Shown: positions 1,712 to 50,883, counted from the stretch's first letter. The stretch is DNA of 64,000 nt from Deltaproteobacteria bacterium (GCA_016219225.1 JACRBX010000202.1:741-64740); one strand, 5' to 3'. Notes: a model not told the origin generated them from the letters alone. A program made the numbers and translations.

Positions 1712-2911
1712 ATGAAAAAGGGAAGAACTATTATTGGGTTACTGGGTATTTTTTTGTCAGTATTTCTTATCGGAACCCCCGACCTCATGGCCCAAAGCCC
1801 CAAGGGTTTAAAAATCGGGGTCTCAACCACTTTAACCGGGCCGGCCTCCTTTATAGGATGGCATGATAAAAATGGGGCCATCCTGACGGCCGAAGAGATT
1901 AACGAACGGGGAGGGGTCACCATAAAAGGGGAAAAGCATAAGGTCGAATTGGAAATATTTGATAACGAGACCAAGCCTGCTAAGGCCGTGGAAGGGATGC
2001 GTCTGTTTGCCGAGAAGGGCATCCATATCTCCCTCGGACCTCAATTGACCCCCATCACCCTGGCCTCCCTGAAATTCAACGAAGAGCTGAAGATCATCTT
2101 TGCTTCTTATAATACCACTCCTGAAGTCTTCGAACAGGGTAATAAGCTCCTCTTAAGCGCTACAGCCAACCAGAAATGGACCATGGGCTTGAGCACCTAT
2201 ACTGCCGCCAAAATATTGAAGGTGAAACGAGTGGCCCTTCTTCTGGATACCACCGGATTCGGGAGGTCGGTGGAGAAGCGCTTCAGCGAGTATTTTAAAA
2301 AATTCGGCGGAGAAGTGGTGGCCGTGGAGTGGTATGATATGGGTTCTACGGACTTCTATCCTCAGCTCACCCGGCTGAAGGCCAAAAATCCGGATGGAAT
2401 CCAAATCGGTGGGGCGGCAGCCGAGGTGGTAACCCTCATCCGTCAGGCCCGGGAGGTCCTGGGGAAAAAGATTTTGATCCTGGGATCGGATTATGTCAAG
2501 TTCGATCAATTGAAAAAAGCCGGCCTGGAGGTGTCTGAAAACACTTTAATCCCCCTCTCCGGGTTCCATATCATCGACAATAAGGCCCATAAGGAATTTG
2601 TCAAGAAATATAAAGACCGTTTTGGTTCCGAACCGGAGACCTATGCCGCATTAGTCCGTGACGAAATGCTTTATTTGACCCGGGCGGCGGAAATCGCCGG
2701 AACGGCCACGGATGCTTTTAAGATTCGAGAGGCCGTGGACAAGGCCATCGTCGAGCTGGATTCCCAGGGGAGGCTCATATCCGGGGCCCATGGCGGGTTT
2801 TTGCCCTCAGGGCTGGCCAAGAATTATTATATCAGCTCCAACCTGCTGCAGAACGGTAAACTGGTTCGTATCAAGACCATTTCCAGCCTGAAGGAAATCG
2901 GGGTGGAGTAG
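1712..2911 (+). CDS. ABC transporter periplasmic substrate-binding protein, LivK/type-I PBP family
   Basis: Signal peptide followed by a KIGVSTTLTGPASFIG...EINERGG motif. Gene order SBP-permease-permease-ATPase-ATPase. RBS AAGGAGG upstream. Confidence 0.9.
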   Translation: MKKGRTIIGLLGIFLSVFLIGTPDLMAQSPKGLKIGVSTTLTGPASFIGWHDKNGAILTAEEINERGGVTIKGEKHKVELEIFDNETKPAKAVEGMRLFAEKGIHISLGPQLTPITLASLKFNEELKIIFASYNTTPEVFEQGNKLLLSATANQKWTMGLSTYTAAKILKVKRVALLLDTTGFGRSVEKRFSEYFKKFGGEVVAVEWYDMGSTDFYPQLTRLKAKNPDGIQIGGAAAEVVTLIRQAREVLGKKILILGSDYVKFDQLKKAGLEVSENTLIPLSGFHIIDNKAHKEFVKKYKDRFGSEPETYAALVRDEMLYLTRAAEIAGTATDAFKIREAVDKAIVELDSQGRLISGAHGGFLPSGLAKNYYISSNLLQNGKLVRIKTISSLKEIGVE

Positions 2912-2918
2912 GGGCCAA

Positions 2919-3791
2919 ATGGGAACAGCCATCTTTCTGCAACAGGTGATCAACGGATTGGTGGTCGGGTCGATTTATGCCATGGTGGCCCTGGGTTTGA
3001 CCCTGATATTCGGCATCCTGCACATCGGCAATTTTGCCCATGGACAACTCTACATGCTCGGCGCCTTTGCCACCTATTGGATGGTCACGCTCTGGGGATG
3101 GAATATCTGGCTGGCTATGCTTGCGGCCATGGGACTCATGGCCCTTTTGGGCATCATTCTGGAGCGCATGGTCTTCCGGCCGGTCCATTCCGCCCCCCAT
3201 ATCAACGGGCTTATTGTCGCCCTGGGGCTCTTCATTGTCCTGGAGAATCTGGCTTTTATTCTCTGGGGCGGCGAAGAACGCATGTTGCCCTCACCCTATG
3301 CCACCAAAACAATTTCCTTCCTGAGCCTCACATTAACCATCCAGCGTCTCCTGGTCTTCATCGTAGCCGTTCTTTTGATCTTCTTACTTTACCTGTTTAT
3401 TCAGCGAACCAAAATGGGTAAGGCCATCCGGGCCGTGGCCCTGGATTCCGAGGTGGCTCGATTGATGGGTATCCCGATCCATCGTATCTCGGCTACGGTC
3501 TTTGCCGTCAGTTCGGCCCTGGCTGCGGCCGCCGGGGCCCTGGTCGGGCCGATTTTTTCGGTTTTTCCGGCCATGGGCTTGAGTCCTATCCTCAAGGCCT
3601 TTGTGGTGATCGTCATCGGAGGCATGGGTTCCATCCCGGGGGCGATTTTTGGCGGGTATGTTCTGGGCATAGCCGAAAGCCTGGGCGCCGGCTACCTTTC
3701 CTCCCAGTATAAAGACGGGTTCGCTTTTTTGGCTTTGATTGTGGTCCTGATGATTAAACCCACCGGGTTATTCGGAAAAAAAGAGGGATAA
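2919..3791 (+). CDS. ABC transporter permease, LivH-like
   Basis: Polytopic membrane protein with a conserved GYVLGIAESLG C-terminal LivH signature. Confidence 0.9.
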   Translation: MGTAIFLQQVINGLVVGSIYAMVALGLTLIFGILHIGNFAHGQLYMLGAFATYWMVTLWGWNIWLAMLAAMGLMALLGIILERMVFRPVHSAPHINGLIVALGLFIVLENLAFILWGGEERMLPSPYATKTISFLSLTLTIQRLLVFIVAVLLIFLLYLFIQRTKMGKAIRAVALDSEVARLMGIPIHRISATVFAVSSALAAAAGALVGPIFSVFPAMGLSPILKAFVVIVIGGMGSIPGAIFGGYVLGIAESLGAGYLSSQYKDGFAFLALIVVLMIKPTGLFGKKEG

Positions 3792-3799
3792 GGATTTTT

Positions 3800-4744
3800 A
3801 TGAAAAACAAGATCGGTTTGGTAACACTTCTGACGGCGCTGGTTATTTTACCTTTTTTCCTCTCCAAGACGCTGCTCCACCTGGCCGTTATCATCGAAAT
3901 TCATGCTATTCTGACCCTGAGCCTGTGCCTGGTGGTGGGCTATGTGGGACAACTTTCCCTCTGTCATGCCGGGTTCTATGGCATCGGGGCCTATACCTCG
4001 GCTCTGTTGACCTTTGCCCATTGGCCCTTCTGGATAACCCTGCCCCTATCCGGGGTCGTCAGCGGTCTCTTCGGCCTTTTCGTCGGCTTTCCTTCGCTCA
4101 AAACCAGGGGGATCTATTTTTCCATCACTACCATGTCCTTCGGGGTGCTTATCGCCATGGTGTTGAATAACTGGATCTCCCTGACCAACGGTCCGGACGG
4201 GTTATCGGGGATCAAAAGTCCGGAGCCCATCTCCCTTTTTAATGGGGCAGCCCTGTCTTTTAAGAATCCTATCCATTATTATTTTCTGGTGGGCTTTTTC
4301 CTGTTGTTTACCGTCCTGGTCATCAGTCGCCTTTTACGGTCCCGGGTCGGACGGGCCTTTATCGGGGTTCGGAACAACGAGACCCTGGCCTGGTCCCTAG
4401 GTATTAATTCGATGCGCTACAAATTGACTGCCTTTATTATCGCTGCTGTTTTTGCCGGATTGGCCGGAAGCCTGTATGCCCATTATCTGCGTTATATCTG
4501 CCCGAAGGATTTCGGACTTCACGAATCCTTCGACATGCTGGTCATGGTGGTGGTGGGTGGGGCCCAGACCCTTCTGGGGCCCATAGTCGGTGCCCTGTTT
4601 GTTCTGGGCCTGCCTAAATTTTTCGGATTTGAACCGGTCTACGGACGGGTGGCCTTCGGCATCATTCTGATTATGGTCATGATCTTCATGCCCCGGGGCA
4701 TCGTAGGAAAATGGCAGGAGTATTTTAAGTCATCCAGAGGATAA
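3800..4744 (+). CDS. ABC transporter permease, LivM-like
   Basis: Hydrophobic 314-aa protein with a LivM-type GQLSLCHAGFYGIGAY motif. Confidence 0.9.
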   Translation: MKNKIGLVTLLTALVILPFFLSKTLLHLAVIIEIHAILTLSLCLVVGYVGQLSLCHAGFYGIGAYTSALLTFAHWPFWITLPLSGVVSGLFGLFVGFPSLKTRGIYFSITTMSFGVLIAMVLNNWISLTNGPDGLSGIKSPEPISLFNGAALSFKNPIHYYFLVGFFLLFTVLVISRLLRSRVGRAFIGVRNNETLAWSLGINSMRYKLTAFIIAAVFAGLAGSLYAHYLRYICPKDFGLHESFDMLVMVVVGGAQTLLGPIVGALFVLGLPKFFGFEPVYGRVAFGIILIMVMIFMPRGIVGKWQEYFKSSRG

Positions 4745-13290: not shown

Positions 13291-14778
13291 GTGGTTACAG
13301 TTGAAAATAACATAGATGATAAACAAGGCTTGCTCCCGCCCCGGGAAAGGATCCAAAAACTATTGGATCCCGGAAGCTTCTTCGAACTGGACAGGTTGGC
13401 CACCCACCATTACCGGGAATTCGGAATGGATAAAAGAGAGATTCCGGCCGATGGCGTGATTACGGGCTTCGGACGGATCAACGGAAGGAAAGTCGCGGTT
13501 TATGCGCAGGATTTTTTGGCCCTGGGCGGCACCTATGGGGAGATGCATGGAAAGAAAATCTGCGCCCTCATGGATACGGCGGCCGAAGCCGGGGCGCCGG
13601 TCATCGGCATCTGTCACTCCGGTGGACTCCGACTTCATGAAACATTAGGTCCCATGGAGATGTTCGGCCAGCTTTTTAAAAGAAACAGCCTCTATTCCGG
13701 TCTGATCCCTCAGATTTCTGTTATTCTGGGGGTGGTGGCCGGAGGTCAGGCCTATTCCCCGGGTCTTACGGACTTTATCCTTATGACCAAAGGTAGCGCC
13801 ATTTATATTGCCGGGCCGGCTTTTGTCAAGGCTCAGACCGGCAGGGAGATCAGCGATGAAGAGCTGGGGGGGGCGGTGATGCACTCCAGGGTGAGTGGTG
13901 TGGTGGATGTTTTGGGAGATACCGAAGAAGAAGTCCTGCAGCAAACCAGAAACCTTTTGGATTTTCTGCCCCTGAATTGCCAGGACCCCACGCCGTACTT
14001 CCCGAATGATGACGACCCGGAGCGGTGTGAGGATGTCTTGAACCGGATCGTCCCGGAAGCATCCCATCGGCCCTTTGATATGAAGAAGGTTATAGGCCCG
14101 ATCTTCGACCAACAGACCTTCATGGAAATGAAGCCCGATTTTGCCCGGAACATGATCACCGGTTTTTCCCGGCTGGCCGGACAGAGCGTCGGCATCGTGG
14201 CCAATCAACCGAACCATCTGGGAGGGGTGATTGATATTAAGGCGGCTGAAAAGGCGGCCCGTTTCGTTCGATTCTGCGATGCCTTCAATATTCCGATCAT
14301 CACCTTTCAGGATTCTCCGGCTTATCTGATCGGCAAGGAAATGGAACAGGGGGGCATGATTTATAAAGGGGCCAAATTGCTTCACGCCTATGCCGAGGCC
14401 ACGGTTCCCAAAATAACCATCATCGTCCGGAAAGCCTATGCCGGGGCCTATATCGCCATGGGCAGCCAGTATATCGGGGCGGATTTCGTCTATGCCTGGC
14501 CGGGGGCGGAGATCTCCAGCGTGGCCCCCAAAACGGCGGCCAGCATATTGTTCCGAAAGGAACTGGCCGAGGCCGGGGCGAATGAACAAAGAGTTGAGGC
14601 CCTTTACCGGGATTATTATGACCGCTATGTCAATCCCTTGCGGGCGGCGTCTTTGCGGCACATTAATGATATTATCGAGCCGAAAACAACCCGGCCGATC
14701 TTGATCAAATCCCTTAATTGGCTTTCAGGGAAAAAACAACCCAGGCTTCCCAAAAAACATGGTAATATTCCATTGTAA
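13291..14778 (+). CDS. Acyl-CoA carboxylase carboxyltransferase subunit (propionyl-CoA carboxylase beta / methylmalonyl-CoA decarboxylase alpha family)
   Basis: Two crotonase-like carboxyltransferase halves. No biotin carboxylase, BCCP or Na-pump subunit is present in the window. GTG start with an AGGAG RBS. Confidence 0.85.
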   Translation: MVTVENNIDDKQGLLPPRERIQKLLDPGSFFELDRLATHHYREFGMDKREIPADGVITGFGRINGRKVAVYAQDFLALGGTYGEMHGKKICALMDTAAEAGAPVIGICHSGGLRLHETLGPMEMFGQLFKRNSLYSGLIPQISVILGVVAGGQAYSPGLTDFILMTKGSAIYIAGPAFVKAQTGREISDEELGGAVMHSRVSGVVDVLGDTEEEVLQQTRNLLDFLPLNCQDPTPYFPNDDDPERCEDVLNRIVPEASHRPFDMKKVIGPIFDQQTFMEMKPDFARNMITGFSRLAGQSVGIVANQPNHLGGVIDIKAAEKAARFVRFCDAFNIPIITFQDSPAYLIGKEMEQGGMIYKGAKLLHAYAEATVPKITIIVRKAYAGAYIAMGSQYIGADFVYAWPGAEISSVAPKTAASILFRKELAEAGANEQRVEALYRDYYDRYVNPLRAASLRHINDIIEPKTTRPILIKSLNWLSGKKQPRLPKKHGNIPL

Positions 14779-14784
14779 GAGGGG

Positions 14785-14819
14785 GTACGCGTTACGGGTT
14801 ACGAGTTGGTAGTTCAAAG
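14785..14819. repeat. Short repeat family K (gtacgcgttacgggttacgagtt..gttcaaag)
   Basis: An inverted copy lies at 58749..58783. Confidence 0.7.
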
Positions 14820-14845
14820 TTCGATCTATTGAGCTTTGATCTCCT

Positions 14846-14942
14846 GTAGGGTGGGTGTAACGAAGTGAAACCCACCAATAAAAAAATGAAGTGAACCCCA
14901 TCAGGTTTATTGGTGGGTTCCGTTTCACTCCACCCACCCTAC
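14846..14942. repeat. Long imperfect hairpin element: two 12-bp stems (gtagggtgggtg/cacccaccctac and cccaccaataaa/tttattggtggg) with an internal loop
   Basis: Seen directly, about 70 nt after the carboxyltransferase stop. Could act as a terminator or be a REP-like structured element. Confidence 0.65.
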
Positions 14943-14949
14943 AAGCTTT

Positions 14950-15023
14950 CTCGCTAAGTCATTCCCGTTTTCACGGAAATGACGGAGAAGTTGTCGATGT
15001 GTTTTCAAAAAGCTAAACTGATA
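14950..15023. repeat. Solo REP-like unit (gtcattcccgttttcacggaaatgacggagaag) plus a conserved tail ttgtcg..ttttcaaaaagctaaactga
   Basis: The same tail (gacggagcgattgtcggcgctttttgaaaaagctaaactga) follows the REP pair at the window end (63959..64000). Confidence 0.7.
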
Positions 15024-15074
15024 CCAAATATTTTATGATTATTGTATGTTAGGTTTCTAAGGAGAGAATAAAAA

Positions 15075-16238
15075 ATGTACTATCCACTAAGTGACGAAGT
15101 TCAGGCCCTCCGTGCAATGGCACGGAAATTTGCCAGGGCGGAAATTCTGCCCCGGGTGGCTGAAGATGAAAAGAATCATTCCTTCCAAAAGGACATCATT
15201 ACTAAAATGGGGGAATTGGGTTTTTTTGGATGCCCTTTGCCGGAAGAATACGGCGGATCTAATTTGGGTTTTTTGGCCCATGCGGTCGTAACCGAAGAGA
15301 TCGCCAGGGTCAGCGGGTCCATACGGGCCGCCTTTAATATGCAGACCATGGGCACGGCCCGGGAAATCTTCCAATTCGGAACAGAGTTCCAAAAGGAAAA
15401 ATATATATCCAGGCTGGTCAAGGCCGAAATCCTGGGGTGTATCGGTATCACCGAACCCAACGCCGGCTCGGACGTGGGCGGGATAAAGACCAAAGCTGTC
15501 AAAAAAGGCAATACCTATATTTTAACGGGTTCCAAAAACTGGATCACCTACGCCCAGGTGGCCGATGTGGGGATTATCTATGCCTATACCGATCCATCCA
15601 GGAAATATAAGGGACTCTCCGCTCTGATCGTGGAAATGAAATCCAAGGGGGTCAGCACTGGTCCCACGGCGGAAAAAATGGGTTGGATGGCCTGCCCCAC
15701 CGGGGAGATCTTTTTTGATGAAGTCGAGGTTCCGGCCGAAAACCTGTTGGGCGGACTGGAAGGAAAAGGCTTTGAGTGCGTCATGGCCGGGCTGGACAAT
15801 ACCCGGCTGACGGCTGCCGCCGGGGCCGTCGGGGTGAGCCAGGGCCTGATTGATGAGGCGGTAAAATATGCCCGGGAAAGAGAACAATTCGGCAACGCTA
15901 TAGGAAAATTCCAGATGGTTCAGGAAGAGCTGGCCCGGATGATCGTGGAAACGGAAGCGGCCCGGTTGATGACCTACAGTTGCGCCCAGGAAAAGGATGG
16001 GGGAAATACTCATAATACCTTAGAGACAAGCATGGCCAAATACTTCGCCTGCGACGTGGCCTCCAGGGTGGCTGACGGCGCTCTCCGGATCTTGGGAGCC
16101 TATGGCTATTCCAGCGAATATGCCGTGGAAAGGCTCTTCCGAGATGCCAAACTCTACCAGATCTTAGAGGGATCGGCCAATATTCAGAAGATGATCATCG
16201 CCACCGATGCCCTGGGATACCGGAAGGCCAACCATTAA
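15075..16238 (+). CDS. Acyl-CoA dehydrogenase
   Basis: Typical ACAD architecture, including the C-terminal REQFGNAIGKFQMVQEELARM motif. AAGGAGAG RBS. Confidence 0.9.
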   Translation: MYYPLSDEVQALRAMARKFARAEILPRVAEDEKNHSFQKDIITKMGELGFFGCPLPEEYGGSNLGFLAHAVVTEEIARVSGSIRAAFNMQTMGTAREIFQFGTEFQKEKYISRLVKAEILGCIGITEPNAGSDVGGIKTKAVKKGNTYILTGSKNWITYAQVADVGIIYAYTDPSRKYKGLSALIVEMKSKGVSTGPTAEKMGWMACPTGEIFFDEVEVPAENLLGGLEGKGFECVMAGLDNTRLTAAAGAVGVSQGLIDEAVKYAREREQFGNAIGKFQMVQEELARMIVETEAARLMTYSCAQEKDGGNTHNTLETSMAKYFACDVASRVADGALRILGAYGYSSEYAVERLFRDAKLYQILEGSANIQKMIIATDALGYRKANH

Positions 16239-16246
16239 AAAATTGT

Positions 16247-16275
16247 TTGACAGGATAAAAAATGATTTATATGTA
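16247..16275 (+). promoter_or_regulatory. Candidate promoter: TTGACAGGAT -35 box followed by an A/T-rich stretch with TATATG/TATGTA -10 candidates, 85-110 nt upstream of the hydratase gene
   Basis: The same TTGACAGGA word is tandemly repeated at 28582..28614. Confidence 0.35.
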
Positions 16276-16357
16276 TTTTCCAGATGATCCTGTAAATCCT
16301 GTCTAATAATGTTGTTGAATTTCAAGATCCTAAAAAGATACGGAAGGAGCTATATTC

Positions 16358-17134
16358 ATGAATGAAAATCCAATCTTACTCGATGTGAATCAAGGCGTAG
16401 CCAGGATCACCTTGAACCTTCCGGAGGTCCGGAACGCCTTGAGTCTAGAGGTTCGGATGACCATGGCCGAAATGTTTATGAAACTGGGTGAGGATGAGGC
16501 GGTGAAGGCTATCATTCTTACCGGGTCCGGAAAGGCCTTTTCCTCCGGCGGGGATATTCGGACCATGGAAGGGGTCAATCCGGTGGCCGGCCGTCTGCGG
16601 CTGAAAAAAGGCCATATCCTGATAAAGACCATGTTGGGACTGGAGAAGCCGATCATCGGGGCTATTAATGGGGTGGCGGCCGGGGCCGGGGTCAGCGTCG
16701 CCCTGGCCTGTGATTTTATAATAGCCTCGGAAGAGGCCCGTTTTGCTGTGAGTTTCAGCAAGATAGGACTGGTGCCTGATCTGGGCCTTTTTTACCTCCT
16801 GCCTTTAAGGATCGGGGTTCCCAGGGCCAAGGAACTGATGTTTTTCGGAGACGTTATAGATCCTCACCAGGCCGAAAGCCTGGGAATGGTCAACCGGGTG
16901 GTGCCGGCGGAAAAACTGGAAGAAGAGGCCCGGGCCATGGCCCAACGTTTGGTGCAGGGCCCAGGTCAATCCTATGCCATGATCAAGTCCGCCCTGAACC
17001 ACTGGCCGGCCGATCTGGATACCTTTTTGGAGATGGAATCGACCATGCAGGCCGTAGCTTTCAACAGCCGGGATTTCGATGAAGGGCGAAGGGCCTTTTT
17101 AGAGAAGAGGAGCCCGGTTTTTTGCGGTAAATAA
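16358..17134 (+). CDS. Enoyl-CoA hydratase/isomerase (crotonase fold)
   Basis: ILTGSGKAFSSGGDI and GAINGVAAGAGVSVALACDF oxyanion-hole motifs. Confidence 0.9.
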   Translation: MNENPILLDVNQGVARITLNLPEVRNALSLEVRMTMAEMFMKLGEDEAVKAIILTGSGKAFSSGGDIRTMEGVNPVAGRLRLKKGHILIKTMLGLEKPIIGAINGVAAGAGVSVALACDFIIASEEARFAVSFSKIGLVPDLGLFYLLPLRIGVPRAKELMFFGDVIDPHQAESLGMVNRVVPAEKLEEEARAMAQRLVQGPGQSYAMIKSALNHWPADLDTFLEMESTMQAVAFNSRDFDEGRRAFLEKRSPVFCGK

Positions 17135-17138
17135 AAGG

Positions 17139-17156
17139 GGCCTTGAGGCCTTTATT
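17139..17156 (+). terminator. Weak intrinsic terminator candidate (GGCC-ttga-GGCC followed by TTTATT)
   Basis: Short GC stem followed by a T-tract, 5 nt after the hydratase stop. Confidence 0.35.
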
Positions 17157-17269
17157 GAAGTTCAAAAACCTGTCCTGTCAATATTTCTTCAACCCCTCTG
17201 ATACCGTTATAAATAACCCCCCCGACCAAGCCGGGGGGATTCTGAATTTAGTTTAAAGTTAAAAAAAAC

Positions 17270-17326
17270 TTGACAAAAGATTAATAATAAATTAAACCAG
17301 TCGTCAGTCGACAGTCTACTAAAAAA
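17270..17326 (+). promoter_or_regulatory. TTGACA -35-like box plus operator-like motif tcgtCAGTCGACAGTCTAC (17301-17319) and an aaaaaag tail, upstream of the second GntR gene
   Basis: The 19-nt core matches the motif at 431-449 with a single Y difference. The aaaaaag tail recurs with one inserted t. Confidence 0.5.
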
Positions 17327-17338
17327 GGACCTATAAAC

Positions 17339-18022
17339 GTGCCCCCTTTAAATAAAAAAAGAGCATTCAGCCCCCAATTTTCCCTCCCTCTGGTGGAACA
17401 GATCACGGAATTTTTGACCCATGCCATTGTGGATGGTCAATTCGAAATGGGGGGGCGGCTGGTTGAAAATGAGCTTCAACGGCAATTCGGGGTCAGCCGC
17501 TCGCCGATCCGGGAATCTTTCCGCATCCTGGAAAAAAAGGGTCTGGTCACCAGCATTCCCAGGAAGGGGACGTACGTCCGGAAGATTGTCCAGAAGGACA
17601 TCGAGGAGAACTTTCCGGTCAGGGCCAATCTGGAAAGCCTGGCCGCCCGCTTAGCCCTTCCCCATCTCACCCCAGAGGATATTGAAAAAATGGAAACCGC
17701 CTTTACCAGGATGGGAGAGGCAGCCCAAAATAATAATTTTAAATCCTATCTCAAGTATCACAGCGAGTACCATGATGTCTTTATAAGGGCCAGTCGAAAC
17801 GATACCCTGATAGAGATCCTGGACAACCTGAGAAATCAGGCCATCTGGTTCAGGTATTCCTATCTTTATGTTCAGGAATCATTTGAATATGCCATCCAGG
17901 TTCATCGAAAGATTTTAGACTGCTTTATAAAAAAGGATGCCGACCGCCTGGAGGCCCTGGTTAAGGAGCATATCCTGATCGCCCTGGAGCGGTTTATTCA
18001 GTTTTTAAACTCTCAGAAATAA
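17339..18022 (+). CDS. GntR-family transcriptional regulator, FadR subfamily (FCD domain)
   Basis: LQRQFGVSRSPIRESFRILEKKGLV HTH. GTG start with an AAAAGGA RBS. Confidence 0.85.
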   Translation: MPPLNKKRAFSPQFSLPLVEQITEFLTHAIVDGQFEMGGRLVENELQRQFGVSRSPIRESFRILEKKGLVTSIPRKGTYVRKIVQKDIEENFPVRANLESLAARLALPHLTPEDIEKMETAFTRMGEAAQNNNFKSYLKYHSEYHDVFIRASRNDTLIEILDNLRNQAIWFRYSYLYVQESFEYAIQVHRKILDCFIKKDADRLEALVKEHILIALERFIQFLNSQK

Positions 18023-43447: not shown

Positions 43448-45034
43448 ATGGAGCTTACCGAAAAACAGAGATTTGAAATAGAGATGTCCAGACAATTGCT
43501 GCTGGGGGAGATGCTGGCCCGTAATGCCCGAAAATTTCCTGACCTGGAAGGAGTGATTTTTAAAGATAAAAGGATACACTATCGGGCCTTGGATGAACGG
43601 GTCAACCGGCTGGCTAATGCCCTTCTGTCACTGGGGATCGGAAAAGGGGATTCCATCGGACTGCTTATGGAGAACAGGCAGGAAATGCTGGAGATATTTT
43701 TTGCAGTGGCTAAAATAGGGGCCGTCAACGTCCCCATAAATATCCGGCTGGCTCCACAGGAAATAGCCTATATCTTGAGTAATGCCGAGGTGAGGCTCCT
43801 CTTTTTGGGAGAGCATTTCGTCCGGACCATCGAAACCATTAAAGGCACTCTCCCCTTAATTGCAGAGTACATCATAACGGATTCGAAAGGGGAGGGAGGG
43901 TATAAATTTTATGAAGAGGTTTTGTCAAAAGGCTCGGTTATTCAACCGGAAGCCCGGCTCCAGGACGACGAGGACGTTTTTCTGATTTATACCGCCGGGA
44001 CTACAGGAAAACCCAAAGGGGCCATATTGACCCACAAAAATTTGATTACCAACGCTATGACCATCAGTATAGAGACAGCCCTGGCGCTTCCTCGAAAAAA
44101 CGATATGCCTTTTATAGCGCCGAAAGTAATGTCCGTTACCCCATTTTTTCATATCGCCGGTGTGGTCAGCATCATCAAGACCATGCAGGCCTTGACGCCC
44201 ATGGTTGTTTTGGATTTTGATCCCGTGGAGTTATTAAAAGCCGTTGAAAGGGAAAGGATTACCTTCCTGTTTCTTGTTCCGGCCATGTGGCTTATGGTGA
44301 TGAATCATCCGGACTTCAAAAAATATGATGTCAGTTCCCTGCGAACGGCCGCCTATGGAGCGGATGTGACGACGAATGCCCTTAAGGAACGGATTCTGGA
44401 ATCATTCCCCAATGCCTCCTTGTATGAAGCCTTCGGACAGACCGAGATGTCGGCCACCACGGTTTACATGAAACACCAGGATGCCCTGCGCAAGGAGGGA
44501 TCTGTGGGGCTGCCTCTATTCAATGTTGAGGTCCGGATAGTGAATGAGGCTATGGAAGATGTCTCGGTTAACGAAGTCGGCGAGATTGTTTATCGGGGAC
44601 CCGGCCTGATGAAGGGCTATTACAAGAACACGGAAGAAACCCGGAAGGCCTTCGAGGGAGGCTGGTTCCACAGTGGCGATCTGGTGCGACGGGATGAGGA
44701 AGGTTTCGTCTATGTGGTGGATCGCAAGAAGGACATGATCGTCAGCGGGGGTGAGAATATTTATTCGGCGGAAGTCGAGTCCGTCCTCCTGACCTGCCCC
44801 AAGATCAAAGAAGCCGCCGTCGTCGGTATTCCGGACCCAAAATGGGGAGAGGCGGTCAAGGCCTGTGTGGTCCTTGAACCGGGCCGGGAAGCAACGGCCG
44901 ATGAAATTATCCAATTTTGTCTTAACAAGATGGCCCGGTTTAAGCGGCCGAAGATCGTCGAATTCCTCCCAGCCCTGCCCCGCAGTGCCACAGGGAAGAT
45001 ACTCAAGCGAGATTTGCGTGCCCATCCAGAATAG
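43448..45034 (+). CDS. AMP-dependent acyl-CoA synthetase/ligase
   Basis: YTAGTTGKPKGA motif and a GWFHSGD motif. Confidence 0.9.
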   Translation: MELTEKQRFEIEMSRQLLLGEMLARNARKFPDLEGVIFKDKRIHYRALDERVNRLANALLSLGIGKGDSIGLLMENRQEMLEIFFAVAKIGAVNVPINIRLAPQEIAYILSNAEVRLLFLGEHFVRTIETIKGTLPLIAEYIITDSKGEGGYKFYEEVLSKGSVIQPEARLQDDEDVFLIYTAGTTGKPKGAILTHKNLITNAMTISIETALALPRKNDMPFIAPKVMSVTPFFHIAGVVSIIKTMQALTPMVVLDFDPVELLKAVERERITFLFLVPAMWLMVMNHPDFKKYDVSSLRTAAYGADVTTNALKERILESFPNASLYEAFGQTEMSATTVYMKHQDALRKEGSVGLPLFNVEVRIVNEAMEDVSVNEVGEIVYRGPGLMKGYYKNTEETRKAFEGGWFHSGDLVRRDEEGFVYVVDRKKDMIVSGGENIYSAEVESVLLTCPKIKEAAVVGIPDPKWGEAVKACVVLEPGREATADEIIQFCLNKMARFKRPKIVEFLPALPRSATGKILKRDLRAHPE

Positions 45035-45120: not shown

Positions 45121-46875
45121 GTGATAATCGATTTAACAGAAATCAAAAAAAGACCCTGGTATCCTTCTTATCCGGAAGGGATCAGGAAACAACTGGAGTC
45201 CTATAGCCTGCCGGAAATACCTTCGTACAGGTTTTTGGAATCATCGGCCAAATACTTTCCCAATTCGACGGCTCTAGTCTACGAGCCGGAAAATTTCCTT
45301 GTCAATTATTTGGAACTGTGCAGCCTGTGTGAGCGATTCGCCTCGGGGCTCCAAAATAAACTGGGTGTCAAAAAAGGGGACCGGGTGGCCATATACGCTC
45401 GAAATTATCCGGAATTCGTCATCGCCCTCTTCGGAATATCGATGGCCGGAGCGGTCTATGTGGCTTGCAATCCCCTGTTGACCGAAGAAGAGGTGGCCTA
45501 CCAGATCAAGGATTCCGGGGCCGGAATTGCCGTCACCTCTGATGATCTGATGCCCGTTTTAAAAGGTCTTGTTGAAAAAAGGGGCACACCCTTGGAAAGG
45601 GTCATCGTATTTACCAGAAATCAGGAATTGAAGCCGGCCCTTCTCGGCCGGAAGGAAATGGCTTTCAAGTCTCCCCTGGTCGGCTTTTCGGAGGTCTTTT
45701 CCGACAAGTCCTTTACCAAACCGGTTATACATCCCAAACAGGATTTAACGGCCATCATGTACACCTCGGGAACGACAGGATATCCCAAAGGGGTCATGAT
45801 TTCTCATTATAATGTCGTTTCCTCGACCATTATGTACCAGACCGCCTATACGGGAAAATTTCCGGAAGTCGATGCTTCCGGTTTTCTAAAGTGTGCCAAT
45901 GACCCGAAGGATCTGACCCGGGAATGGGATTATCCCATCCGCTATGGCATGGATTCCGTGCTGGTCGTTCCCCCCTGGACGCACATGCTGGCCTATTTGG
46001 GGCAATTGCACTTTCCGGTCATGGCCGCCATGGCGATTTTCCCTATGCCGGCTTTTAACAAAGACTCGATGCTCGATATGGTCAGACGCTGGAAGATAAG
46101 CTTTGCCGGAGGGGCCCCGCAAATGATGGCCATGTTGCTTTCCCTGTCGGAAGGGGACCAAGGGGCCCTCTATCCCATCCGGGCCTGGACCACCGGCGGT
46201 TCTCCGGTTCCCACGGTTTTGGCTGAAAAGTTTTCCCGAATCATCAGCGGCGTCATCACCGAGGGGTACAGCCTGACCGAGGCGACCATCAGCTCTACGA
46301 AACATTACTGTAACCGGTCGGGCCGGAGAAAATACGGGTCCATCGGAAGCCCTCTTCCCTTCATCGATATGAAAGTGGTCGACATCCTGACGGGAAAGGA
46401 AGAAATGCCTGTAGGGCAGGAGGGCGAATTGATTCAAAACGGACCGACCGTAACCCTGGGCTATTTAAATCGACCGGAAGCCACCCAGGAGACCTTCAGA
46501 AACGGTTGGCTCTATACCGGCGATCTGGCGGTCATGGATGCGGAGGGGTTGTTTTATATTACCGGCCGGAAAAAGGAACTGATCATTTATAAGGGGTACA
46601 ATATCGCCCCCCGGATGCTCGAAGAAATTCTGTATAAGCATCCCGACGTGTTGGAATGCGCCGTGGTCGGCAAGAAGGATGATATGGCCGGGGAGATACC
46701 GGTGGCCTTTGTCACCCTTAAAGAAGGGCGTCGGGCAGCGGCCGAAGAAATCATGGCCTTTGTCAACGAAAAGGTGGCTCCCTATAAGAAGATCAGGGAG
46801 CTCAGATTTATCGATAAGATACCGGTAAATCCGAATGGCAAGGTCATGCGCAAGGAACTGGTGAAGATGGTTTAG
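45121..46875 (+). CDS. AMP-dependent acyl-CoA synthetase/ligase (long-chain/medium-chain FadD-like)
   Basis: YTSGTTGYPKGV motif and a GWLYTGD motif. GTG start, so start position is uncertain. Confidence 0.85.
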   Translation: MIIDLTEIKKRPWYPSYPEGIRKQLESYSLPEIPSYRFLESSAKYFPNSTALVYEPENFLVNYLELCSLCERFASGLQNKLGVKKGDRVAIYARNYPEFVIALFGISMAGAVYVACNPLLTEEEVAYQIKDSGAGIAVTSDDLMPVLKGLVEKRGTPLERVIVFTRNQELKPALLGRKEMAFKSPLVGFSEVFSDKSFTKPVIHPKQDLTAIMYTSGTTGYPKGVMISHYNVVSSTIMYQTAYTGKFPEVDASGFLKCANDPKDLTREWDYPIRYGMDSVLVVPPWTHMLAYLGQLHFPVMAAMAIFPMPAFNKDSMLDMVRRWKISFAGGAPQMMAMLLSLSEGDQGALYPIRAWTTGGSPVPTVLAEKFSRIISGVITEGYSLTEATISSTKHYCNRSGRRKYGSIGSPLPFIDMKVVDILTGKEEMPVGQEGELIQNGPTVTLGYLNRPEATQETFRNGWLYTGDLAVMDAEGLFYITGRKKELIIYKGYNIAPRMLEEILYKHPDVLECAVVGKKDDMAGEIPVAFVTLKEGRRAAAEEIMAFVNEKVAPYKKIRELRFIDKIPVNPNGKVMRKELVKMV

Positions 46876-46981: not shown

Positions 46982-48187
46982 ATGATCGCTGACCTTTTAA
47001 AAACCTTACAAACTCAAATTGAAAAAGTATCCCGGATGGATTTTTATAAAAGGAAACTCGATCAGGCCGGTGTAACGGCGAATTCGATTCAGAGCATTGA
47101 TGATTTTAATAGGATCCCCTTTACTTCCGGTCATGAGATCCTGGAAGAACTTAATAAAAAGCCCTCCGAGTGTTCTTTGTTCACTCCGGCGGTAACCCGG
47201 GTTAATCTTTCCCCTTCGGGACAGGACCTGTTTCCGGTTTACAACACCAACCAGGATCTCCAAAAGATGCACGAAGTCGCTGCCCGGGCCTATGAGGCGG
47301 CCGGCGTGACTCCGGATGATATCTGTGCCGTCACCTTTGGCTATCACCTGTTTATCGCCGGACTTTATTATCAGAGCCAGCTTGAATATTACGGGGCCAA
47401 GGTCATCCCCCTCGGTCCGGGAGAATCGGAAAGGGCCGTGGAAGTCATCAATAAATACCAGGTGACGGTTTTAATCTCCAATCCCACCTTTGCCATGAAG
47501 CTGGCCGCCAAGGGAATCCCCAGTGTGCGCATCCTTTTTGTCGGCGGGGAACCTTTTACTTCGGTGGAGGGCTATCCCGAAAAAGTCCGGGCGGCCTTCG
47601 GCCGGAAAATCGGGATGATCGATTCTTATGGGATGGCCTTATGTTCGCCTATTGCCCGGAGCTGCCGGTTTGAAAAAGGAATGCACCTTCTGGATGATTT
47701 CATCTATGCCGAGGTGATTGATCCTTTGACCGGAGCCCCCGTGCCTTTGGGTGAAAAAGGGGAACTGGTTTTGACCCATCTCCATAAGGAGGCCTCTCCG
47801 TTGCTGCGCTACCGGACCGGTGATTTAACTTATATGATCGAAGAAAAGTGTCCCTGCGGAAGATCCTTCACCCTGCCCAAAGGGATTATAGGCCGGACCG
47901 ATGAAATGCTTAAGATCAAAGGAGTCAAGTTCTGGCCCTCCCAGATCGGGGCCATTCTTCAAAGTGTGGCCGGGGCCGGAAAAAAATACCGGGTAGTGGT
48001 CCGGAATCCCCAGGGGGTGGATACCATTTCTTTAATGATCGAGGGCACGGAGGGGTCAGTGGATCTGGAGGAATTGGCCCGCCGACTGAAAAGGGAAACC
48101 CTCCTGGCCTTTAACGAAATACTTCTTATAGATCATTTTGATCAGGGCCCTGTTGTCGAGGACCAACGACAGGGGAGGACTTTTTGA
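46982..48187 (+). CDS. PaaK-like adenylate-forming enzyme (phenylacetate-CoA ligase / F390 synthetase family)
   Basis: About 400-aa ANL-superfamily member lacking the long N-terminal domain of FadD-type ligases. AAGGAGAG RBS. Confidence 0.8.
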   Translation: MIADLLKTLQTQIEKVSRMDFYKRKLDQAGVTANSIQSIDDFNRIPFTSGHEILEELNKKPSECSLFTPAVTRVNLSPSGQDLFPVYNTNQDLQKMHEVAARAYEAAGVTPDDICAVTFGYHLFIAGLYYQSQLEYYGAKVIPLGPGESERAVEVINKYQVTVLISNPTFAMKLAAKGIPSVRILFVGGEPFTSVEGYPEKVRAAFGRKIGMIDSYGMALCSPIARSCRFEKGMHLLDDFIYAEVIDPLTGAPVPLGEKGELVLTHLHKEASPLLRYRTGDLTYMIEEKCPCGRSFTLPKGIIGRTDEMLKIKGVKFWPSQIGAILQSVAGAGKKYRVVVRNPQGVDTISLMIEGTEGSVDLEELARRLKRETLLAFNEILLIDHFDQGPVVEDQRQGRTF

Positions 48188-49284
48188 TGGCTGAACTACG
48201 ATTGATCCAATCGGATTATACCTATGCCGACTTTTCGACCAGCCTTTCCCCGGCCATCGAACTGGCCCTGGAACAGAGGAAGGCGCCCAATACGGTGGTG
48301 CTGGACATTTTCCGGGCAGGGAGTTTTACCATCGGGGTCCTGGAAGACCCGGAAAAATCTCTGGACCTGGATTACTGCCGGCAGGAAAATATTACCGTTC
48401 GAAGACGCCAAAATCCCGGAGGGGCTATATGGGGCCCGGACGGAAGTGCTTTTATTGTCTATTATCTGGATACGAAAGACCCTGCGGTGCCGATGAAATC
48501 GGTGAAGGAGGCTTTCCAAAAGGGCCTGACGGATCTGGCTGAGGTGATCAGCGCCATGTTTAACATCCCGGCGGCTTACCGGCCTTTGAATGATATCGAG
48601 GTGGAGGGGAGAAAACTTGTGCCTACCTCGGCCAGGCTGGAGAAGCGCATCCTGACCTTACGTTTGCTGATCAATCTGGTTCCCACCGACAGGGATATTC
48701 TGAACAGGGCCATAAAAGTGGCCCCGGAAAAGATTCAGGACAAGAAAATCAAAGAAGTGGGAGCCCGGTTTACCTGTTTGGAAGCGGAAATAGGCAGAAA
48801 GATCATCTCTGACGAAATCAAGGAACTTATGGAAAAGGTCATTCAAAAAACCTTCGGCCAAGCCATAAACCTGAAGCCGGGTGTTTTAACCGATCTCGAA
48901 AAACGATATGAAGCGGAGTACCAACAAAAATTTACTTCAGAGGAATGGTTTTATGCCAATTCGGAAATATTCCGTTTTCAGAACAAGCCTGCCGGGGCTA
49001 TAATAACCGAGGGACGCCACAAGGCCCCGGCCGGGTTGATACGGGTGACTATCCTGGTTTACCGGGATAAAATGATGGATCTTATTATTACCGGTGATTT
49101 CCATCCTTCGCCTTTGCAGGTGATTCAGGACATGGAACAGGCCCTGAAGGGCAAAGCCTGCAAAATGGATTTGATCCGATCGGAATTAACCGCCATCTTG
49201 GACAGTCCGGAGGTTGAGATTCCTGGGACGACGGTGGAAGATTTTCTGGTGGCCTTTAAAAAAGCATTAACCTGGGAACATTGA
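48187..49284 (+). CDS. Lipoate-protein ligase A (LplA)-like protein: BPL/LPL catalytic domain plus LplA C-terminal domain
   Basis: The N-terminus aligns to E. coli LplA (LRLIQSDYTYADFSTSL..VVLDIFRAG..TIGV / RRRQNPGGAI where LplA has RRSSGGGAVFHD). Conserved Lys in VEGRKLVPTSAR. Start overlaps the PaaK stop (TGATG). Confidence 0.75.
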   Translation: MAELRLIQSDYTYADFSTSLSPAIELALEQRKAPNTVVLDIFRAGSFTIGVLEDPEKSLDLDYCRQENITVRRRQNPGGAIWGPDGSAFIVYYLDTKDPAVPMKSVKEAFQKGLTDLAEVISAMFNIPAAYRPLNDIEVEGRKLVPTSARLEKRILTLRLLINLVPTDRDILNRAIKVAPEKIQDKKIKEVGARFTCLEAEIGRKIISDEIKELMEKVIQKTFGQAINLKPGVLTDLEKRYEAEYQQKFTSEEWFYANSEIFRFQNKPAGAIITEGRHKAPAGLIRVTILVYRDKMMDLIITGDFHPSPLQVIQDMEQALKGKACKMDLIRSELTAILDSPEVEIPGTTVEDFLVAFKKALTWEH

Positions 49285-49331: not shown

Positions 49332-50537
49332 ATGAAAATGCAAGAAAATAATCTGCCCCTGCGAGGGCTGAAAGTCATCGACCTGGCTACGATGATGGCC
49401 GCTCCCTGGGCGGCCGCCTATCTGGGGGATTATGGGGCGGAAGTCATTAAAGTGGAGCATCCTAAAACCGGCGACGGCATGAGAAAATTCGGGGCCTCCA
49501 AGGATGGTAAAGGTGTTTTTTGGAAGTCTTTGTCCAGAAACAAACAATGCATCACCCTGGATGTGAAAAATGGGAAAGAGGTCTTTTTAAAGCTTATACA
49601 GTGGGCTGATGTGCTGATTGAAAATTTCCGGCCCGGAACCATGGAAAAATGGGGCTTGGGCTGGGAGGTGATCCGGGAAGCCAACCCCCGGATCATCTGG
49701 CTCAGGGTTTCCGGGTTTGGACAGGAAGGCCCCTATGCCAGCCGGGGCGGGTTCGGTACCGTGGCCGAGGGGATGTGCGGGTTCGCCGCCCTGAACGGGT
49801 ATCCCGACTCCCCGCCGACGCTGCCTCCTAACGCCCTGGCCGACGGGGTTTGCAGCGCCTTTGCCGCCCTGGCGATCATGATCGCCCTTTATGACCGGGA
49901 TGCCCTGGGCAGTGCCAAGGGACAGATCATCGATATATCCCTTTATGAGCCATTGATGCGGCTTTTGGAAAGCAATGTCATGGAGTATTCGGTACTCGGT
50001 CTGAAATCGCCGAGGATGGGCAGCAGGATCGCCTCGGCGGCACCGCGAAATCTTTACCAGACCAGGGGAGGCCGATGGATCGGTTTATCGGGAAGCGCCC
50101 AGCCTATTGCCGAGAATGTCTTCAGGGCTATCGGCCGCCCGGATCTGATAAAGGACCCGAGATTTTGCGACAACCCCAGCCGGGTTAAACATGTGGAAGA
50201 GCTGGACGCCATTATCGGCGAGTGGATCGGAAGCCATTCTCTGGACGAGGTCATGGAGACCTTCTTAGAGGCCCAGGCGGTGGTCGGTCCGGTCTACGAA
50301 ATGGATCAGATCTTTGAAGATGTCCACTTCAAGGCCAGGGAATCCTTGGTTGAAGTGGAGGATGAAGATTTCGGAACGATTAAAATGCCCAACACCTTCG
50401 CCAAATTTTCCCGCACCCCCGGTGCCGTTCAATTTACCGGCGGCGCTAAAGGGGCGGACAACAAAAAGATCTACTGTGATTTGTTGGGGTTATCCCCTGA
50501 TGAACTACAGAAGCTTCAGGAGGATGGGGTGGTTTAA
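49332..50537 (+). CDS. Family III CoA-transferase
   Basis: GLKVIDLATMMAAPWAAAYLGDYGAEVIKVE motif. GAGGTAA RBS. Confidence 0.9.
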   Translation: MKMQENNLPLRGLKVIDLATMMAAPWAAAYLGDYGAEVIKVEHPKTGDGMRKFGASKDGKGVFWKSLSRNKQCITLDVKNGKEVFLKLIQWADVLIENFRPGTMEKWGLGWEVIREANPRIIWLRVSGFGQEGPYASRGGFGTVAEGMCGFAALNGYPDSPPTLPPNALADGVCSAFAALAIMIALYDRDALGSAKGQIIDISLYEPLMRLLESNVMEYSVLGLKSPRMGSRIASAAPRNLYQTRGGRWIGLSGSAQPIAENVFRAIGRPDLIKDPRFCDNPSRVKHVEELDAIIGEWIGSHSLDEVMETFLEAQAVVGPVYEMDQIFEDVHFKARESLVEVEDEDFGTIKMPNTFAKFSRTPGAVQFTGGAKGADNKKIYCDLLGLSPDELQKLQEDGVV

Positions 50538-50854: not shown

Positions 50855-50883
50855 TTGACACTATTTTTTTTTAATATTATAGT
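50855..50883 (+). promoter_or_regulatory. Near-consensus sigma70 promoter TTGACA-N17-TATAGT
   Basis: Exact -35 hexamer, a 17-nt spacer and a 5/6 match at -10. Lies 197 nt upstream of hisI. The leader contains the cgaggcg, ctatagcc and inverted-E repeats. Confidence 0.55.

Follow-up and report, generated by a model that had tools for sequence, protein, structure and literature searches.

The 64,000-nucleotide stretch of DNA analyzed here (the window; Deltaproteobacteria bacterium, GCA_016219225.1 JACRBX010000202.1:741-64740) carries two overlapping genes, encoding a PaaK-like protein of the ANL superfamily and an LplA-like protein built like a lipoate–protein ligase (Table 1). All evidence on the pair is computational. 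Pfam and NCBIfam profiles confirmed its placement between two FadD-type ligases and a family III coenzyme A (CoA)-transferase, as given in a preliminary description made from the sequence alone. The TGATG overlap reported there was evident from the junction sequence (...GGGAGGACTTTTTGATGGCT), in which the stop codon TGA (48185-48187) and the start codon ATG (48187-48189) share 1 nt and the Shine-Dalgarno sequence GGAGG lies 8 nt upstream of the ATG. The LplA-like protein had been assigned 366 amino acids, the length obtained from a mechanically listed TTG at 48184. The ATG at 48187 (MAELRLI...) is the true start because the N-termini of the orthologues begin with M-x-x-LRLI; the full-length LplA-type protein was thus upheld, at 365 residues. 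Its translation contains both strings quoted earlier, TVRRRQNPGGAIWGPDG and IEVEGRKLV. The protein collection contained the PaaK-like protein of the source metagenome-assembled genome (MAG) (P0121, NCBI 'Deltaproteobacteria bacterium' MAG; 100% identity), and the best match of the window LplA-like protein reached only 84%, though its open reading frame (ORF) is intact in the window; in public records the source gene may have been called wrongly or left without annotation.

Table 1. Features of the PaaK-like/LplA-like pair and of associated genes. Positions are those of the window unless another locus (L number) is named.
Feature	Position	Strand	Length or residues	Basis or counterpart
PaaK-like ANL-superfamily gene without adenylation motifs	46982..48187	+	401 aa	ORF, Pfam, NCBIfam, PDB, AlphaFold2
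Former P-loop (A3), NLSPSGQDLFP for ASSGTTGKPTV	47204..47236	+	75-85	alignment
A7 motif YRTGD, kept	47810..47824	+	277-281	E. coli PaaK counterpart YRTRD
A8/hinge motif GRTDEMLKIKGVKFWPS, kept	47891..47941	+	304-320	aligned to E. coli PaaK GRSDDMLIIRGVNVFPS
QGP at the position of the A10 catalytic lysine	48143..48151	+	388-390	alignment
Translational-coupling junction, GGAGG Shine-Dalgarno (48174-48178) and stop/start overlap	48174..48189	+		sequence
LplA-like gene, catalytic and C-terminal accessory domains, apparently neofunctionalised	48187..49284	+	365 aa	
Rebuilt lipoate-binding loop, RRRQNPGGAIWGPDG vs RRxxGGGA(V/I)Y(H/L)D	48400..48444	+	72-86	
Catalytic lysine K143 (GRK), kept	48613..48615	+	143	aligned to K138 of 6jom
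Adenylate-binding loop region KVAPEKIQDKKIKEVGARFTCL, kept	48715..48780	+	177-198	aligned to 6jom KKIEAKGIKSVSQRVTNL
C-terminal accessory (LplB-like) domain	48994..49281	+	~270-365	Pfam, NCBIfam, PDB profile
Two canonical FadD-type ligases, same-strand run, upstream of the pair	43448..45034 and 45121..46875	+		Pfam, NCBIfam
Family III CoA-transferase, last gene of the run, downstream of the pair	49332..50537	+		CoA_transf_3, 370 bits
Clade B three-gene units	L001 9659-12367; L002 9632-12342; L086 8810-11473; also L008-L011			
Clade C LplA-like genes	L086 6395-7501; L090 4724-5878; L094 4830-5936; L095 4838-5950; L100 4658-5776; L004 2356-3402			
Heptamer repeat sites	7885, 14803, 22000, 38196, 45041, 50548, 52384, 52534, 61233, 61282			

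By fold and by sequence, the first protein of the pair belongs to the PaaK family. Pfam scores were 43 bits for AMP-binding and 34 bits for AMP-binding_C_2, each exceeding its cut-off; the NCBIfam PaaK models scored 232 and 185 bits without reaching the equivalog cut-offs of 700 and 646, and the best solved relative was the PaaK homologue 4r1l (E 1.6e-51). The AlphaFold2 model (predicted local distance difference test score, pLDDT, 82) found its best Foldseek matches in PaaK and 2-hydroxyisobutyryl-CoA ligase (HCL), with template modelling (TM) scores of 0.78-0.81, and its lowest confidence fell on residues 78-82, the former P-loop. PDB 9s3l (401 aa) was tried as a model of the clade and discarded, as it is ClxA, a PaaK-family aminohydroxybenzoate-adenylating enzyme with a P-loop.

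Genuine E. coli PaaK from MG1655 served as the motif reference. The P-loop, which in ANL enzymes holds the phosphates of ATP, reads HASSGTTGKPTVV in E. coli PaaK and NLSPSGQDLFP--V in the PaaK-like protein, being two residues shorter and devoid of the Thr-Thr-Gly-Lys. In the PaaK-like clade SSGTTGKP has become SPSGQDLFP, and the degenerate P-loop was seen in 118 of the best 120 homologues (all in which the region was readable) and in loci L089-L132. In the A10 region SEGKACRVFDLR (SEGK) of E. coli PaaK aligned with DQGPV-VEDQR; the lysine position was occupied by Pro in every one of the best 120 homologues, mostly as xEGP. The two upstream FadD-type ligases, used as the internal control, have both motifs intact (TAGTTGKPKG...SATGKILK and TSGTTGYPKG...NPNGKVMRK). 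A7, whose Asp binds the adenylate ribose in ANL enzymes, was preserved, with R278, G280, and D281 invariant and Y277 and T279 nearly so in two PaaK-like alignments. So was A8, the motif serving the thioester-forming conformation, with ten invariant residues in the PaaK-like alignment (G304, R305, D307, K311, K313, G314, V315, K316, P319, and S320). A5, which is YGLSE in E. coli PaaK, reads YGMAL in the Desulfobacterota PaaK-likes and SLSE in the proteobacterial ones. Loss of the P-loop and A10 lysine together with retention of A7 and A8 was found in 12 orthologues from three phyla or classes and recurred in essentially all of the best 120 database homologues. In known ANL enzymes, loss of the A10 lysine abolishes adenylation and not thioester formation (Acs K609, PrpE K592, luciferase K529). 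Judged by the motifs lost and kept, the PaaK-like protein looks adenylation-dead and competent in the thioester step; its earlier designation as a PaaK-family adenylating enzyme holds for the family, but the adenylation motifs are lacking.

The second protein combines the LplA catalytic fold with an accessory domain. In Pfam, LplA-B_cat scored 64.2 bits (cut-off 27) and Lip_prot_lig_C 22.2 bits, just below the cut-off of 24. The NCBIfam LplB model gave 52.5 bits over residues 277-362 (cut-off 65), and the family profile matched LplB of PDB 3r07_C with E 1.6e-12. The AlphaFold2 model (pLDDT 94.1) aligned in Foldseek with full-length LplA structures at TM 0.70-0.74 and E ~1e-21. Translation, profiles, and fold thus bear out the full-length protein with the Lys context VEGRKLV and a C-terminal accessory domain. 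The NCBIfam equivalog level was not reached, with 80.6 bits for lipoate--protein ligase (TIGR00545) against 280 and 75 bits for LplA_large against 480. The catalytic lysine K143 was invariant in 31 aligned LplA-like sequences and corresponds to the catalytic lysine of E. coli LplA, K133. The remaining sites were mapped by profile alignment on the M. hyopneumoniae lipoate ligase (Mhp-Lpl, 6jom), whose contact residues were taken from PMC7186572. Five of the six hydrophobic AMP contacts were kept (I80, L158, I166, L170, and V189 of Mhp-Lpl correspond to I81, V164, L172, I176, and F195), which makes six of seven AMP-contact positions when the catalytic lysine is included. In the adenylate-binding loop K182, D185, K186, and R194 were invariant in the family alignment. 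The accessory domain is needed for adenylate synthesis in LplA-type ligases (PMC7253636, PMC6067878).

A different picture was obtained for the acyl-binding part. The canonical lipoate-binding loop was not found; the LplA-like family reads RRRQNxGGAIxGPxG instead. The acyl tunnel was rebuilt as well, T75 of Mhp-Lpl being replaced by an invariant N76, A143 by an invariant S148, and Y152 by L156, and new invariant pocket residues appeared (R150, E152, R159, and N163). The suspicion that the protein is no conventional lipoate ligase is strengthened by the rebuilt loop and tunnel and by scores far below the equivalog cut-offs; judged by these features, it is not one. Loss of the residue equivalent to His149 was considered as proof of lost function and rejected, since the active Mhp-Lpl also lacks that His (PMC7186572).

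The outgroup LplA (~30% identity) has the canonical motifs RRIxGGGAVYLD and GRKISGTG and no PaaK neighbour; in Smithella and Thermacetogeniaceae it lies between genes for a GcvH-like protein, a second LplA catalytic-domain protein, and a radical-SAM protein. In L045 (2616-8883) and L024 (5577-9621) this cluster consists of an FAD-linked oxidase, a CCG/4Fe-4S protein, a short LplA catalytic-domain protein, a GcvH-like protein, the full-length LplA, and a radical SAM protein. The cluster is one of lipoate assembly, with a link to an Hdr/glycolate-oxidase-like redox module. As the outgroup stands in a true lipoate-assembly context, the PaaK-linked clade is an offshoot of real lipoate ligases, apparently neofunctionalised and switched away from lipoylation.

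Conservation of the pair was followed from both partners. From species-representative genomes, 80 loci were retrieved with the LplA-like family alignment. Wherever an LplA-like protein at least 40% identical to that of the window came with an upstream flank, a PaaK-like gene was present, with the exceptions of L007 and L017. In all 13 loci with such an LplA-like protein and a PaaK-like gene, the two were adjacent or about 1.2 kb apart: the PaaK-like gene was directly upstream in L005, L012, L013 (Paraburkholderia oxyphila), L014, L015, and L016 (Algihabitans), and ~1.2 kb upstream, with a crotonase or acyl-CoA dehydrogenase (ACAD) gene between, in L001, L002 (Desulfoferula mesophila), L003, and L008-L011. 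The hosts of the pair are Desulfobacterota, marine Alphaproteobacteria, and Paraburkholderia. All the LplA loci at ~30% identity (Chloroflexota, Bacillota, Syntrophia, archaea) were without a PaaK-like gene. In the reciprocal test, 80 metagenome loci were fetched with the PaaK-like alignment. Of the 22 P-loop-less PaaK-likes flanked by at least 1.3 kb on both sides, 20 had an LplA-like gene within 2 kb; none of the 24 PaaKs whose P-loop is canonical had one. The junction from the PaaK-like to the LplA-like gene was compared in 25 non-redundant cases: six overlap (-1, -4 or -8 nt), 14 have gaps of 0-30 nt, and five exceed 30 nt. In a neighbour-joining tree all PaaK-linked LplA-likes formed one clade apart from the unlinked ones, and the ratio of nonsynonymous to synonymous substitution rates against orthologues (0.10-0.11 for the PaaK-like and 0.13-0.14 for the LplA-like gene) indicated purifying selection on both. 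The LplA-like clade is small, with about a dozen 50%-identity clusters at 38% identity or more among 1.84 billion representatives; the search returned 369 matches at 90% clustering. No natural PaaK-like/LplA-like fusion was found among the matches listed. The only fusion seen joins an LplA-like and an Acyl-CoA_dh_N domain (P0081, 440 aa, on a 2.2-kb metagenome contig) and may be a real one echoing the LplA-like/ACAD adjacency or an artefact of frameshift or assembly. Thus, the PaaK-like/LplA-like pair is a conserved functional unit and not a coincidence, and the genome survey proposed in the preliminary description found the gene pair conserved across genomes.

The pair was found in varied catabolic surroundings. 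In an operon shared by marine alphaproteobacterial loci it follows a gene for a DOPA-dioxygenase-family protein and precedes genes for crotonase, SCPx thiolase, an ACP_syn_III_C-like protein, DUF35, NMO, and 3-hydroxyacyl-CoA dehydrogenase, and the operon adjoins genes for a gentisate-dioxygenase-like bicupin, an FAA-hydrolase, and a MarR regulator. Among Desulfobacterota, L090 and L095 have a TAXI-TRAP transporter after the pair, L100 has PrpD ahead of it, and in L001, L002, and L086 it lies within mutase/carboxyltransferase/ACAD/crotonase clusters. In L094 an 812-aa glycyl-radical enzyme (PFL-like and Gly_radical; 2241-4679) is encoded directly upstream of the pair, whose LplA-like member is of clade C, and two carboxyltransferases and two ACADs follow it; this locus may link the pair to fumarate addition or another anaerobic radical activation. 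Of the 34 pair loci, 26 had neither a FadD-type ligase nor a family III CoA-transferase in the flank. The slot taken by the pair is the one expected of an acid-activating enzyme. The small conserved neighbours at pair loci were a 131-aa cupin-like protein, IscU/NifU_N-like, DOPA-dioxygenase-family, and DUF35/ChsH2 proteins; none of them was a lipoyl or biotinyl domain, and the cupin-like and IscU-like ones were absent from the window. Neither the window nor the ~35 pair loci contained a lipoyl/biotinyl acceptor, a GcvH-type protein, or a lipoate-dependent complex, in keeping with the earlier statement that no lipoyl-dependent complex lies near the pair.

Besides the window-type protein, two further groups of LplA-like paralogues were distinguished. 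Clade B proteins, 48-49% identical to the window protein, belong to a three-gene unit with a 390-aa ACAD and an IscU/NifU_N-like protein of 124-132 aa that keeps all three Cys; no such ACAD/IscU-like unit was found in the window. Clade C proteins (30-34% identity) are encoded directly upstream of the PaaK-like gene, carry a 5-residue insertion ahead of the catalytic lysine (CEDGIWRKIG), and lack R150 and R159. In the closest relatives of the window (L004, L005, and L084) a clade C copy lies directly downstream of the window-type LplA-like gene; the window has no such copy, which is either lost or was never present.

Altogether, these observations raised a hypothesis that the pair makes up a hetero-oligomeric acyl-CoA synthetase, with each gene encoding one half and the halves belonging to unrelated adenylate-handling folds. 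In the first step, the LplA-like subunit, with its class-II-synthetase-like fold and accessory domain, would bind a non-lipoate carboxylic acid and activate it with ATP to acyl-AMP via K143 and the retained adenylate site. In the second, the PaaK-like subunit would take over the acyl-AMP and transfer the acyl group to CoA with the help of the A7 Asp and A8, and the acyl-CoA product would then enter the beta-oxidation-type pathway encoded around the pair. The LplA-like protein is the better candidate for the adenylating half because it keeps the catalytic lysine, six of seven AMP contacts, the adenylate-binding loop, and the accessory domain. We infer the chemistry of each subunit, the formation of the complex, and the substrate, and we give this split acyl-CoA synthetase a little under an even chance. 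Hints at the substrate come from the polar invariant pocket residues and the genomic contexts (family III CoA-transferases, PrpD, the glycyl-radical enzyme, and gentisate-type genes), with which a substituted dicarboxylic or aromatic acid is in keeping. More tentatively, the pair may represent a new class of acyl-CoA synthetases, in which an LplA-fold subunit for recognition and adenylation serves an ANL thioester module and the LplA-like clades A, B, and C swap the acids.

Several observations weigh against a split synthetase. The window, L005, and L084 have a canonical FadD directly upstream and a CoA-transferase downstream of the pair; with FadD ligases already present, an extra ligase is not obviously needed there. 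Many Desulfobacterota loci hold two or three LplA-like paralogues per PaaK-like gene, and one paralogue always stands beside the ACAD and IscU-like genes, a feature not foreseen by the simple model. No LplA-like gene lies within 6 kb of the P-loop-less PaaK-likes that form a sister subclade (L123 5842-7158, L126, L129-L132); their motif is TFSPMGxxLxPVFDT, a convergent Amidohydro_2 gene comes next, and the vicinity holds canonical ANL ligases as well as a family III CoA-transferase. In the LplA-like protein the AMP-contact L82 is replaced by G83 and the Asp of the adenylate loop is lost, and sequence cannot prove that ATP binding is kept because the nucleotide contacts of LplA are largely main-chain. 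The C-domain of the PaaK-like AlphaFold2 model took the adenylation-type orientation (TM 0.81 to 6hdw vs 0.70 to 6he0), weak evidence that we judged uninformative.

The invariance of A4, A7, A8, and many other positions from Desulfobacterota to Alphaproteobacteria, the A5 S-E pair kept in proteobacterial members, and the new invariant lysines of A8 would also suit a PaaK-like protein that is a complete CoA ligase with non-canonical ATP binding. K311 and K316 in A8 might then substitute for the A10 lysine, and the LplA-like protein would be an accessory factor that, for example, captures or delivers the substrate, proofreads the adenylate, or stabilises the enzyme. We regard this as unlikely, given that the former P-loop is two residues shorter and offers no Thr, Gly, or Lys for the beta and gamma phosphates. 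No functional ANL enzyme is known to us in which the P-loop and the A10 lysine are both missing. An accessory role would also leave the strong constraint on the catalytic lysine, adenylate loop, and accessory domain of the LplA-like protein unexplained.

Since both partners depart from the signature motifs of their families, they could instead be pseudoenzymes, forming a non-catalytic ligand-binding or scaffold pair such as a sensor of acyl-AMP, acyl-CoA, or the acid with a part in regulating or organising the pathway. The several LplA-like paralogues per locus and the absence of R150 and R159 from clade C would agree with it. Nevertheless, the catalytic lysine is invariant across all LplA-like clades, A7 and A8 are invariant too, the pair takes an enzyme's place in the operon, and dedicated regulators (GntR, IclR, MarR, TetR) are already present beside the pair, which makes a sensor or scaffold likewise an unlikely account.

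The placement of the pair inside acyl-CoA operons, many of them in energy-limited anaerobes, could also be read in the opposite direction. The PaaK-like protein would make acyl-AMP and CoA from acyl-CoA and AMP, and the LplA-like protein would either acylate an amine or a protein or regenerate ATP with pyrophosphate in an energy-conserving release of the free acid. The thioester half-reaction of ANL enzymes needs neither the P-loop nor the A10 lysine, which is in favor of such a scheme. However, the pair also occurs in aerobic marine Alphaproteobacteria and Paraburkholderia, where it heads beta-oxidation operons beside uptake systems, a position that fits substrate activation and not product release, and no conserved acceptor was found. 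A reversed flow is therefore quite improbable.

According to the preliminary description, the PaaK-like protein adenylates an acid and feeds the acyl-AMP to a degenerate LplA-like acyltransferase that would acylate a protein lysine or amine. The conserved and coupled gene pair, the retained LplA lysine, which is also used in the transfer step, and the vertebrate LIPT1 half-ligase as a precedent working in the same direction (PMC7253636) are compatible with such a relay. The PaaK-like clade, however, has lost the P-loop and the A10 lysine and kept the thioester motifs, and it is therefore unlikely to supply acyl-AMP; the LplA-like protein keeps an accessory domain that transfer-only enzymes do not need. 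Protein acylation in particular found no support, as no lipoyl, biotinyl, or GcvH-type acceptor is conserved at the pair loci, in contrast to the outgroup, which adjoins GcvH. We consider this direction very unlikely. That the LplA-like protein is an ordinary lipoate–protein ligase with a CoA ligase as a chance neighbour, as its full-length LplA fold and the JGI and NCBI pipeline annotations would have it, is effectively refuted by a pairing that is clade-wide and reciprocal, and is extremely improbable also in view of 80.6 bits against the 280-bit equivalog cut-off, the rebuilt lipoate loop and tunnel, and, unlike in the outgroup, no lipoyl acceptor nearby.

The surroundings of the pair in the window form an acyl-CoA catabolic island with at least six family III CoA-transferases, five ANL genes, several SCPx-thiolase/DUF35 pairs, ACADs, crotonase, carboxyltransferase, a BKACE enzyme, and four Liv-type binding proteins; paa ring-oxygenase genes were not found in the window. 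No terminator-like site was detected between the FadD genes, the pair, and the CoA-transferase, and a promoter-like site was seen at 50855, ahead of the his genes. The region 1-43200 is unusually redundant, with family III CoA-transferases at 465, 6466, 7944, 31850, and 33047 in addition to that at 49332; those at 31850 and 33047 are adjacent and BbsEF-like. Further FadD-type ligases lie at 10346 and 29728, the BKACE enzyme at 28839, and the Liv-type binding proteins at 1712, 11907, 22089, and 38409, and the SCPx-thiolase/DUF35-type pairs number four. The block Carboxyl_trans-ACAD-ECH-GntR at 13291-18022 has a counterpart directly flanking the pair in L001 and L002. The window contains about ten copies of a tandem heptamer, (GAGTTCG)3-4 or the complementary sequence (27 matches vs 1.3 expected), nearly always 5-50 nt past a + strand stop codon, including those of the first FadD gene and of the CoA-transferase closing the pair run; one copy is within the 5' end of ORF 52499. 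The heptamer has the look of a repeat specific to this genome that lies between genes or punctuates operons.

If the split synthetase were confirmed, the half-reactions of acyl-CoA synthesis could be divided between two evolutionarily unrelated adenylate-handling folds, and the LplA-like protein would provide the first non-lipoylation catalytic role of a full-length LplA homologue. Hundreds of annotations as 'lipoate-protein ligase A' or 'phenylacetate-CoA ligase' in Desulfobacterota, marine Alphaproteobacteria, and Burkholderiales would then need correcting; reconstructions of the metabolism by which hydrocarbons and aromatic acids are degraded anaerobically are distorted by them. An ANL enzyme that is adenylation-dead by nature would be useful for examining the thioester half-reaction in isolation. 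Cultured hosts, Desulfoferula mesophila (complete genome AP028679) and Paraburkholderia oxyphila NBRC 105797, make the split-synthetase idea testable. The pair suggests an undescribed two-protein route to acyl-CoA, and no paper naming both enzymes or both genes together was found in the searchable literature. The earlier remark that such an arrangement is not a described pathway holds, within the literature searched, for the PaaK-LplA pairing and needs qualifying beyond it: a two-protein adenylate hand-off is already known from LIPT1, and a split salicylyl-AMP ligase/salicylyl-CoA synthetase is reported for Streptomyces WA46.

As each protein fails the defining features of its family, we filed them neither as a lipoate ligase nor as a phenylacetate-CoA ligase, and compared them with the known systems individually. 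The LplA-like protein shares the two-domain fold of the Gram-positive and archaeal lipoate ligases (S. pneumoniae 1vqz, M. hyopneumoniae Lpl 6jom, and T. acidophilum LplA-LplB), solved lipoate ligases being matched by the family profile with E 5e-20 to 6e-14, and like them it keeps the catalytic lysine, the adenylate-binding loop, the hydrophobic AMP contacts, and the accessory domain. It differs in the rebuilt polar loop and tunnel, the sub-cut-off scores, the PaaK-like protein as an obligate neighbour, and the missing lipoyl acceptor. In anaerobes and archaea, the LplA linked to GcvH and radical-SAM genes belongs to what we take to be lipoate assembly of the sLpl(AB)-LipS1/S2 type.

With the octanoyl and lipoyl transferases LipB, LipM, and LipL, which act on phosphopantetheine thioesters, the LplA-like protein has in common the BPL_LplA_LipB catalytic fold and the conserved lysine. 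These transferases work with a Cys nucleophile and have no accessory domain, whereas the LplA-like protein has the domain and no family-specific Cys. A LipB-like Cys-Lys mechanism through the invariant C64 was considered and rejected: C64 is not a derived nucleophile, because the true ligase of the outgroup carries the same Cys. The family profile gave no sequence match to LipB, LipM, or LipL, and in Foldseek LipB structures matched only the catalytic domain, at lower rank. The GP following the glycine loop may faintly recall the LipB motif HGPGQ.

The PaaK-like protein resembles the PaaK subfamily (B. cenocepacia PaaK1/2, B. thetaiotaomicron BT_0428, and HCL) in the short ANL fold with AMP-binding_C_2 and in the A4, A7, and A8 motifs kept by its clade. 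Unlike PaaK, it lacks the P-loop and the A10 lysine, its Desulfobacterota members also lack the A5 Thr/Ser-Glu, and its gene is not in a paa operon and is accompanied by an LplA-like gene.

Two systems in which acid activation is divided between proteins come closer to the arrangement proposed here. In Streptomyces sp. WA46 a salicylyl-AMP ligase, SdgA, and a putative salicylyl-CoA synthetase, SdgB, are described for a pathway to gentisate (PMC4600096). As far as that description goes, the two cases share the split in two proteins, with gentisate-type genes also carried by the marine pair operons, and they differ in the LplA-fold protein, which is not reported for the Streptomyces pathway. In vertebrates, a lipoate-activating ANL enzyme makes the acyl-adenylate, which is used by the LplA-fold half-ligase LIPT1 (PMC7253636). 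Both there and in the PaaK-like/LplA-like pair, an ANL-fold protein is combined with an LplA-fold one and one of the two partners is unable, or here apparently unable, to adenylate. The roles appear to be swapped: in the bacterial pair it is the ANL partner that looks adenylation-dead, and the accessory domain, disabled in LIPT1, is still intact in the LplA-fold partner. Unlike in the LIPT1 relay, the likely acceptor is CoA and not a lipoyl domain, and the two genes are operonic and translationally coupled.

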